A DNA stretch of 46,180 bases, from positions 1 through 46,180 of the IMG/VR virus record IMGVR_UViG_3300011915_000001; one strand, given 5' to 3'. Made by a program: the position numbers and the translations under genes. Below are positions 32,617-33,291 of this stretch, piece after piece (positions within the stretch are counted from its first letter, which is position 1; each line of letters opens with the position of its first letter). A model generated the notes under the pieces. It was not told where the DNA came from. It saw only the letters and a program-made list of their open reading frames with translations, and did no database searches. Source of the stretch: a virus.

Positions 32617-32916
32617 ATGGACGGGCCGCCGCTGCGGCTCATGGATCTCGTCTTCTACTTGCGTGACTCTGGCAGGCCTGAAGCGTGCCCGTTCTGCGAG
32701 TACAAAGGCGCCTGGGATATGCATATCGAGTTTGAAGAAGGCGATTCAGAGAACAACCCACCACTTACGGTCTTTCAGACGGCCACGAGATCAGAGCCAG
32801 AATCTCCGCACACCTGTGTCGCAATGACCTGCCCCCAATGCGGGCACTTTTCGATGATCAGTGAATACAGGGTTCGGATGTATATGGCAGGCAGGGAGGC
32901 TGCGGTCAATGGGTGA
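32617..32916 (+). CDS. Zn-ribbon protein co-transcribed with cI (gene A of the immunity-region cassette)
   Basis: ATG 32617 has RBS AAGGAAG, 40 nt after the cI stop with no terminator between. CPFC...CPQC pairs and an acidic EFEEGDSENN stretch. Confidence 0.6.
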   Translation: MDGPPLRLMDLVFYLRDSGRPEACPFCEYKGAWDMHIEFEEGDSENNPPLTVFQTATRSEPESPHTCVAMTCPQCGHFSMISEYRVRMYMAGREAAVNG

Positions 32917-33244
32917 GGTTTTGAGGCCGACGAGCTGGACAACGGGCGGGGGCAGGGACAATATTGGCGGTGAGAACCCACCTGGAGGCGGAGAATTGGA
33001 GAAGCGCGTCGAGGCACTTGAGAAAGTCCTTCCGGACATTCGGGAGAGGCTTGCGCGCGTCGAAACCAAAGTCGACCAGATTGAAAAGACCATGGCTACC
33101 AAAGCCGATCTGGATATTCTTCGAGGCGCGATATCTACCGACCTGCATAAAGCCATCGGCGACCAGACTTGGCGCTTCATTACGGTCTCATGCGTACTCG
33201 CCGGCATAGCGTTTACTGCGGCCCGGTTTATTCCTGGCAGCTGA
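32909..33244 (+). CDS. Tail-anchored coiled-coil membrane protein (gene B of the immunity-region cassette)
   Basis: ATG 32909 (RBS GGGAGG) overlaps the end of gene A. Gly-rich N-terminus, heptad-like ELEKRVEALEKVLPDIRERLARVETKVDQIEKTM, and a C-terminal TM WRFITVSCVLAGIAFTAARFI. Confidence 0.6.
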   Translation: MGEVLRPTSWTTGGGRDNIGGENPPGGGELEKRVEALEKVLPDIRERLARVETKVDQIEKTMATKADLDILRGAISTDLHKAIGDQTWRFITVSCVLAGIAFTAARFIPGS

Positions 33245-33268
33245 TCGCCGAGTCCTAACACCCGAAGG

Positions 33269-33291
33269 CCCCGCACCTAGCGGGGTTTTTT
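33269..33291 (+). terminator. Intrinsic terminator ending the cI-A-B operon
   Basis: CCCCGC-accta-GCGGGG followed by TTTTTT. Confidence 0.85.

Follow-up and report, generated by a model that had tools for sequence, protein, structure and literature searches.

Organization of the cI-A-B unit

The stretch of DNA analyzed here, positions 1 to 46,180 of the IMG/VR virus record IMGVR_UViG_3300011915_000001 (46,180 bp; herein called the window), comprises the complete genome of a temperate phage or prophage of the Pseudomonas type. On the minus strand, positions 1 to 31,500 hold the genes for structure, lysis, and replication, followed by a divergent cro/cI switch, from which plus-strand early-left genes extend to an integrase-sized open reading frame (ORF) at 44917–46080. 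Directly behind the repressor gene cI, on the plus strand, lie two small overlapping genes that are referred to as A (32593–32916) and B (32909–33244). The former is predicted to encode an acidic (pI 4.9) cytoplasmic Cys4 zinc-ribbon protein, and the latter a 111-residue tail-anchored membrane protein with a heptad coiled coil and a C-terminal transmembrane (TM) helix. That A and B form a widespread, uncharacterized two-protein module at the 3′ end of temperate-phage repressor operons is strongly supported; in the literature, no paper characterizing these proteins was found.

The unit is compactly built. The stop codon of cI occupies 32575–32577, and the 39-nt spacer that separates it from the ATG at 32617 contains an AAGGAAG motif and folds into no stable structure (dG −7.1, z = +0.39), in agreement with the initial annotation, which had seen this motif and no hairpin between the two genes. 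The start of B lies, as likewise noted there, inside the last codons of A, and the stop of the one gene and the start of the other overlap by 8 nt in the window (ATGGGTGA, 32909–32916), which is an arrangement of translational coupling. All 12 pairs examined have such an overlap, its length being 8, 11, or 17 nt. The unit ends with an intrinsic terminator on the plus strand at 33264–33291 (dG −17.9 kcal/mol, z = −2.5), consisting of the hairpin AAGGCCCCGC-ACCUA-GCGGGGUUUU and a U-run. A strong terminator had been noted at this place with the left operator/promoter region (OL/PL) next to it; the terminator is confirmed, and the OL/PL-like sites lie farther downstream at 33717–33755, beyond a DUF1654 gene. 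The cassette differs in composition from the core genes, with a GC content of 0.556–0.568 versus 0.613 and a GC content at third codon positions of 0.62–0.67 versus 0.78–0.84.

A and B are regarded as real genes because diverged homologues of them occur as an overlapping pair in many loci. It is strongly supported that the two are translationally coupled, co-inherited, and positioned for transcription from the repressor promoter in the lysogen. The proposal that they occupy a position equivalent to that of rexAB in phage lambda stands: the strand is that of cI, the spacer is short and unstructured, the genes are coupled, a terminator closes the unit, and the arrangement is kept in many loci.

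The initial annotation correctly described gene A as carrying CPFC...CPQC pairs and the acidic patch EFEEGDSENN. Its start requires revision. From the ATG at 32617, which is preceded by AAGGAAG at a distance of 5 nt, the product would have 99 residues. The start is probably the TTG at 32593, 24 nt upstream, which has GGAG-N6 ahead of it and gives 107 residues, since the 83%-identical relative P0002 begins with MITDARKY and the window encodes LITDARKY. The N terminus of P0002 is MITDARKYMNGP, and the window encodes the equivalent LITDARKYMDGP from TTG 32593. This N-terminal extension of eight residues is found in the relatives P0002, P0003, P0104, P0111, and P0116 and in that of locus L017.

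Alignments of 12 and of 33 relatives show no exchange at the four cysteines of A (C24, C27, C72, and C75), and a Trp after the first knuckle is nearly invariant as well. The AlphaFold2 (AF2) model, with a predicted local distance difference test (pLDDT) score of 83.6, shows a helix, a three-stranded sheet bearing two knuckles, and a C-terminal helix. The two conserved CxxC knuckles and the modeled strands flanking them are those of a Cys4 zinc ribbon, so that the assignment of A as a small, acidic, presumably cytoplasmic protein of this type is strongly supported by alignment and model. The family corresponds to phrog_4293, which is matched by 26 of 33 members (best E = 7.2e-12), with A of the window itself being borderline (1.2e-3). 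A word-indexed search recovered only three relatives of A. An exhaustive search with a profile of the A alignment returned 935 clusters at 50% identity with E<=1e-3, 38 of them at E<=1e-10; the best 150 matches are almost all 90–125 residues long and align over nearly their full length, and generic zinc ribbons may be present among the weaker matches. No significant family was found for A in Pfam, NCBIfam, or PADLOC. Among PDB sequence profiles, the best match is a weak one to an archaeal RpoM/TFS-type ribbon (E = 0.0048), and a Foldseek search of the model against the PDB gave generic zinc ribbons only (best E 0.3). The sole significant Foldseek match is an unnamed viral protein of 87 residues (A0A0H5ARH7), a length equal to that of gp27 of phage PS-1, which is described below.

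B consists of a variable N-terminal peptide (residues 1–10), a Gly-rich/PPGG linker (11–28), a heptad coiled coil (29–62), a second helix, and a single hydrophobic C-terminal TM helix (90–108, mean Kyte–Doolittle 1.93), beyond which three residues remain outside. All 10 a/d positions of the coil are hydrophobic (LVLLILVVIM). The Gly-rich N terminus, the heptad helix, and the C-terminal hydrophobic helix had all been recognized in the initial annotation. The Gly-rich stretch of about residues 11–28 (32939–32992), which AF2 predicts to be disordered (pLDDT below 50), ends in PPGG[DE], and this motif is conserved directly before the coil in most homologues. For B within a concatenated A+B chain, AF2 predicts two long helices only. 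It is strongly supported that B is an inner-membrane protein that is held by its single C-terminal helix and faces the cytoplasm with almost all of its residues.

The word-indexed search found 55 homologues of B. Among the PHROG families, B matches phrog_3556 (3.8e-13), phrog_6136 (2.7e-11), phrog_6324, and, more weakly, phrog_689 (2.8e-6). The last is annotated as holin and is the only one of the families matched by A or B to carry a functional annotation; phrog_4293, phrog_3556, phrog_6136, and phrog_6324 have none. No significant Pfam or NCBIfam family was found for B, and DUF7310 (E = 0.0099) and XhlA (E = 0.61) remain below threshold. PDB sequence profiles give only generic coiled coils, mostly trimeric ones. 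XhlA (PF10779), DUF1640, DUF3618, and DUF7310 proteins share with B an N-terminal cytoplasmic coiled coil and a single C-terminal TM helix, and automatic names of B relatives use labels of these types. The likeness to XhlA and DUF1640 proteins is one of architecture only, as had been stated, with XhlA reaching 10.7 bits against a cut-off of 34.7 bits. Furthermore, XhlA genes sit in lysis cassettes beside a holin and an endolysin, whereas B sits in a repressor operon, and B differs from XhlA-type proteins by its Gly-rich/PPGG linker and its zinc-ribbon partner.

Distribution and modular exchange of the pair

A/B pairs directly follow an S24-type cI gene in about 15 loci of Pseudomonas, Halopseudomonas, and Paraburkholderia. 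In phage PS-1 (NC_029066), the flanks of which have 84–86% DNA identity to those of the window, the diverged homologues are gp27 (CPFC...CPNC) and gp26 (Gly-rich, with coil and TM helix). Lambdoid prophages of Pseudomonas aeruginosa show the order cro<-cI->A-type ORF->B homologue (P0026, 233 contigs)->DUF1654. The A-type ORF of these prophages (107 residues, CEAC...CGKC) is conserved and shares 17 nt with the start of B, yet it is uncalled in all five lambdoid loci L002–L006 (3694–4017), which is a systematic annotation gap. The cI-A-B layout is also found in L014, L015/L023, L017, L024, L025, L028/L029, and L031 and in Paraburkholderia phage IPK. In all 10 further loci that were scanned, the ORF directly upstream encodes a Peptidase_S24 repressor, with one intervening gene in L019 and L026. 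The module is also found behind repressors of another family. P2-like prophages of P. aeruginosa carry a P2-C-type repressor (PF07022), a 107-residue CPHC...CPQC protein (P0074, 551 contigs), and a B homologue (554 contigs), and a P2-C-type repressor likewise lies upstream of the pair in L032. A stand-alone pair without an adjacent repressor occurs in L011/L012. Among five distant members of the A family that were sampled, every ribbon precedes or is fused to a coiled-coil single-pass membrane protein. Several variants of A and B were searched by tblastn in 50,697 phage records, and matches came from PS-1 and Paraburkholderia phage IPK only; a blastn search with the A/B cassette gave no match.

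Besides these intact pairs, altered arrangements are present. A metagenomic protein of 214 residues (P0120) is a natural A-B fusion, in which an A-type ribbon is joined to a B-type coil and TM helix. In Pseudomonas sp. MWU13-2105 (L016, 4980–5294), the C-terminal part of a ribbon (..CGYMGCTSVKKVVEGLS) is joined directly to a B coil (EKVIPEIRERL..), which suggests either the remnant of a deletion or a second fusion. In P. aeruginosa CP159840 (L009, 2173–4237), an insertion sequence (IS) encoding a 398-residue rve-family transposase lies in the 3′ end of A, truncates the C-terminal helix, and splits A from B. In the P2-like P. aeruginosa prophages of L007–L010 (4480–5835), a gene for a Fic-domain protein of 451 residues is convergent to the repressor-A-B operon and lies beside tail genes, possibly as a further accessory (moron) gene of the same variable region.

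The comparison with PS-1 delimits the cassette. The two DNA sequences are similar across cro and cI up to 32581, which is 4 nt beyond the cI stop, and again from 33268, at the terminator; between these points they share no more than a patch of 41 nt at the second knuckle. What has been swapped is thus a discrete unit that is bounded by the cI stop and by the terminator, the latter forming its right boundary. Window and PS-1 have their operators in common and the DNA-binding region of their repressors is near-identical, yet their A proteins are only 37% identical, and the specificity of A/B is thus not tied to that of immunity. A breakpoint of another kind is seen in the comparison with L021, where similarity begins at 32965, inside B just before the coil, and continues through the terminator, and where the upstream partner gene is unrelated.

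The two parts of B differ in conservation. Coil and TM helix are 51–89% identical to those of the window in nine of 13 loci and 35–48% identical in the others (L001, L025, L029, and L030). Across the compared loci, A is 14–48% identical to that of the window or is replaced by a non-Cys partner. The classes of the first ~10 residues of B track the class of A: a peptide of the form MG[DE]V..xxW pairs with CP.C...CP.CGH ribbons, and one of the form M[TS]..h.h.h pairs with CE.CG...CGNTR ribbons. A third class comprises L013, L019, and L021, where B has a longer helical N terminus and A is replaced by a helical partner without the cysteines.

The surrounding immunity region

The cro-like gene (31587–31805, minus strand, 72 residues) is divergent from cI and belongs to the YdaS_toxin/P22_Cro helix-turn-helix type (E = 3.7e-16; phrog_35). 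The cI repressor (31879–32577, plus strand) matches Peptidase_S24 (7.3e-16) and HTH_3 (4.9e-14) in Pfam as well as phrog_4 (3.1e-39). Two operator-like sites of the right-operator (OR) type, TACAA-N7-TTGTA, lie at 31862–31878 and 31887–31903, occur at the same positions in PS-1, and overlap a promoter-like site for cro on the minus strand. One of them falls within the annotated start of cI, and the repressor may therefore begin at the in-frame ATG 31915 or be made from a short or leaderless mRNA; hence, the start of cI is uncertain and may be 31879 or 31915. Four sites of this sequence (starting at 31862, 31887, 33719, and 33739) and no others were found in the window, against 0.25 expected. 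The second two (33719–33735 and 33739–33755) form the OL/PL-like region on the plus strand (33717–33755), where they overlap a promoter-like ATTACA-16-TACAAT at 33717–33744.

Between the terminator of the cI-A-B unit and OL/PL, a DUF1654 gene (33425–33676, plus strand, 83 residues; PF07867, 1.4e-18) is preceded by a LexA-type box, CTGTGTGGATATCCAG (CTG-N10-CAG, 33392–33407, plus strand), and followed by a terminator of its own (33683–33702; dG −15.3, z = −4.1). From the positions of genes, box, and operators, the layout reads cI-A-B-terminator, LexA box-DUF1654-terminator, and then OL/PL. Operators and box are placed in PS-1 as in the window, and the box itself is identical there. The P. aeruginosa prophages have a perfect LexA-type box, CTGTATATACATACAG, at the equivalent place before the DUF1654 gene, and gene and box are also observed in L001 (5758–6048) and L002 (4434–4715). 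DUF1654 mutants of Pseudomonas fluorescens are sensitive to cisplatin, and LexA regulation has been predicted for the gene (Price et al., bioRxiv 10.1101/072470). The DUF1654 gene would be an SOS-wired small gene within the immunity region.

The lysis genes of the phage, recognized by eye, lie at 244–1247 on the minus strand. They comprise an endolysin-like ORF of 159 residues (768–1247) and an Rz-like ORF (244–843), which contains an embedded lipoprotein-like ORF (294–506) with LMALAGC.

Possible functions of A and B

The closest known parallel in position is RexA/RexB of lambda. In both cases, two genes directly follow the repressor on the same strand, a terminator precedes PL, one product is cytoplasmic and the other is a membrane protein, and expression in lysogens is expected, for A/B from position. 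The proteins themselves have no similarity in sequence or fold. RexA is of a DNA-binding dimer type of about 30 kDa, whereas A is a 12-kDa zinc ribbon, and RexB has four TM helices, whereas B has one C-terminal TM helix and a coiled coil. A case within Pseudomonas is prophage P1 of Pseudomonas putida, where PP_5643/PP_5644 in the post-cI slot have been proven by experiment to be an abortive-infection (Abi) pair of the RexAB type (PMC12894663). In strain KT2440 (L034, 1–2134), the slot holds PP_3897, PP_3898 (78 residues, helical), a RexA-like protein (330 residues), and a RexB-like protein with four TM helices (188 residues). These genes are unrelated to A and B, which marks the slot as a place of variable cargo in the lambdoid prophages of Pseudomonas. 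PP_3897 and PP_3898, located directly behind the P1 repressor, were considered as A/B homologues and rejected after the locus had been recovered via a published primer and compared. They showed no defense phenotype, and because they are not homologous, this negative result is uninformative on A/B. The actinophages Butters (gp30/gp31, PMC7542560) and CarolAnn (PMC6426606) are reported to encode, beside the immunity repressor, one cytoplasmic and one membrane protein that are expressed by the prophage and defend against heterotypic phages. The arrangement resembles that of A/B; proteins and hosts are unrelated. The so-called overlapping exclusion genes of Fc02 were also compared and discarded, being unrelated genes upstream of a Mu-like repressor.

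The best reading of A/B, held at a little less than even confidence, is a lysogen-expressed exclusion system composed of a sensor and a membrane effector. It is argued for by analogy and pattern, namely by the proven defense slot of P. putida P1, by the modular diversification and swapping, and by the independence from repressor type. The weak match of B to a holin-annotated family, the separate lysis cassette of the phage, and the lower GC content of the A/B cassette also count in its favor. Under this reading, the pair would be expressed in lysogens from the repressor promoter, with A as the fast-evolving sensor and the coil and TM helix of B as the conserved membrane effector. The docking site of A would be the short, variable peptide at the N terminus of B, as suggested by co-variation, coupling, and fusion, and B would oligomerize via its coiled coil. 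A phage product may then trigger or titrate A, whereupon, most likely, B would permeabilize or depolarize the membrane and the infection by the superinfecting phage would be aborted. Such a system would share its logic with RexA/RexB while being built from unrelated proteins. A more far-reaching version, which we consider possible though on the unlikely side, is that A/B represents a large unrecognized anti-phage family, in which a hypervariable ribbon sensor sits in an exchangeable docking peptide of B, the tail-anchored effector is conserved, and re-targeting occurs by swapping of sensor and peptide together. Such a modular design of sensor and docking peptide would differ from RexAB and from catalogued defense systems.

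Several observations weigh against exclusion as the function. The case for defense is limited to position and evolutionary pattern, since neither protein has a significant Pfam or NCBIfam family or a structural relative of known function. No family of PADLOC-DB v2.0.0 is matched by either protein at E<=10. The search of predicted structures called for in the initial annotation was run with Foldseek, for A against the PDB and BFVD and for the concatenated A+B model against the PDB, and returned no relative of known function. In the concatenated AF2 model, the N terminus of B has a pLDDT of 42–53 (residues 101–120), and contact between A and B is unsupported by the model. The A-B fusion P0120 has been seen once, in metagenomic data. 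In distant relatives, the membrane partner has another topology, with the TM helix mid-protein in L031 and longer C-terminal tails in L032 and L033. Finally, with only ~3 periplasmic residues in B, classical injection-blocking exclusion is unlikely, and mechanisms acting in the cytoplasm or on membrane integrity remain.

The same position invites a rather improbable alternative, in which A/B belongs to the lysis-lysogeny circuitry of the phage, either as a membrane tether for a regulator (an antirepressor, a Cro-like protein, or a late activator) or by coupling the state of the envelope to induction. RexA of lambda also modulates the switch. With repressors of two families, the pair is almost always joined to the repressor gene in one operon, the adjoining DUF1654 gene with its LexA box suggests SOS wiring of the block, and regulators or nucleic acid are conceivable ligands of a small zinc ribbon, with the weak RpoM/TFS-type match (E = 0.0048) pointing the same way. 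However, the alleles of A/B are not tied to immunity specificity (window versus PS-1), the pair accompanies structurally unrelated repressors and also occurs without an adjacent one, related phages such as P. putida P1 have other genes in the slot, and variants with an IS insertion or a deletion lie in otherwise intact-looking immunity regions. Expression from the lysogenic operon, implied by position, would also suit a lysogenic-conversion (moron) function on host physiology, for instance on stress tolerance or on the state of ribosomes or membrane, with A as the partner of B; we consider this unlikely. B, with ~90 cytoplasmic residues, a coiled coil, and a C-terminal anchor, has the architecture of tail-anchored stress proteins such as the Escherichia coli ElaB/YqjD/YgaM class, and the pair is very common in prophages of clinical P. 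aeruginosa (about 550 and about 230 contigs). Against this stand the lack of a Pfam match to DUF883/ElaB or a like family and the rapid diversification with modular swapping of A and of the N terminus of B, which are more typical of conflict systems.

A toxin-antitoxin-like (TA) addiction pair, with B as membrane toxin and A as labile antidote, would stabilize the prophage and would account for two small translationally coupled genes in an operon, for the co-variation of the upstream protein with a peptide of the downstream one, for the weak holin-family similarity of B (phrog_689), and for the stand-alone chromosomal copy (L011/L012). A natural A-B fusion is hard to square with an antidote that is labile and degraded separately, and many TA pairs act as defense, so that this explanation, for which we see little probability, overlaps with the Abi reading. 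The initial annotation had named a lysis accessory as an example of a non-defense function, and B as an XhlA-like accessory or holin partner in the lytic cycle of the phage itself, regulated by A, is the most doubtful proposal and is disfavored. It draws on the phrog_689 match (2.8e-6), on one relative automatically named Hemolysin XhlA in UniProt, and on an architecture that matches Bacillus XhlA proteins. However, the Pfam match to XhlA stays far from the cut-off (10.7 versus 34.7 bits), A/B lies in the repressor operon with a terminator before PL and 31 kb from the opposite-strand endolysin/spanin cassette (244–1247), and no endolysin or holin was found beside A/B in any locus examined.

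If exclusion by sensor and membrane effector is indeed the function, the catalogue of defense systems would gain a module that is both compact (about 650 bp) and very common. Because hundreds of clinical P. aeruginosa genomes carry it, the module could influence which hosts therapeutic phages are able to infect, and the slot behind the repressor would be a general defense hotspot across lambdoid and P2-like phages. Should the lysogeny switch be the target instead, A/B would constitute a new class of accessory regulators common to phages with unrelated repressors. Whatever the function, A and the first ~10 residues of B present a testable interface that is apparently swapped as a unit.

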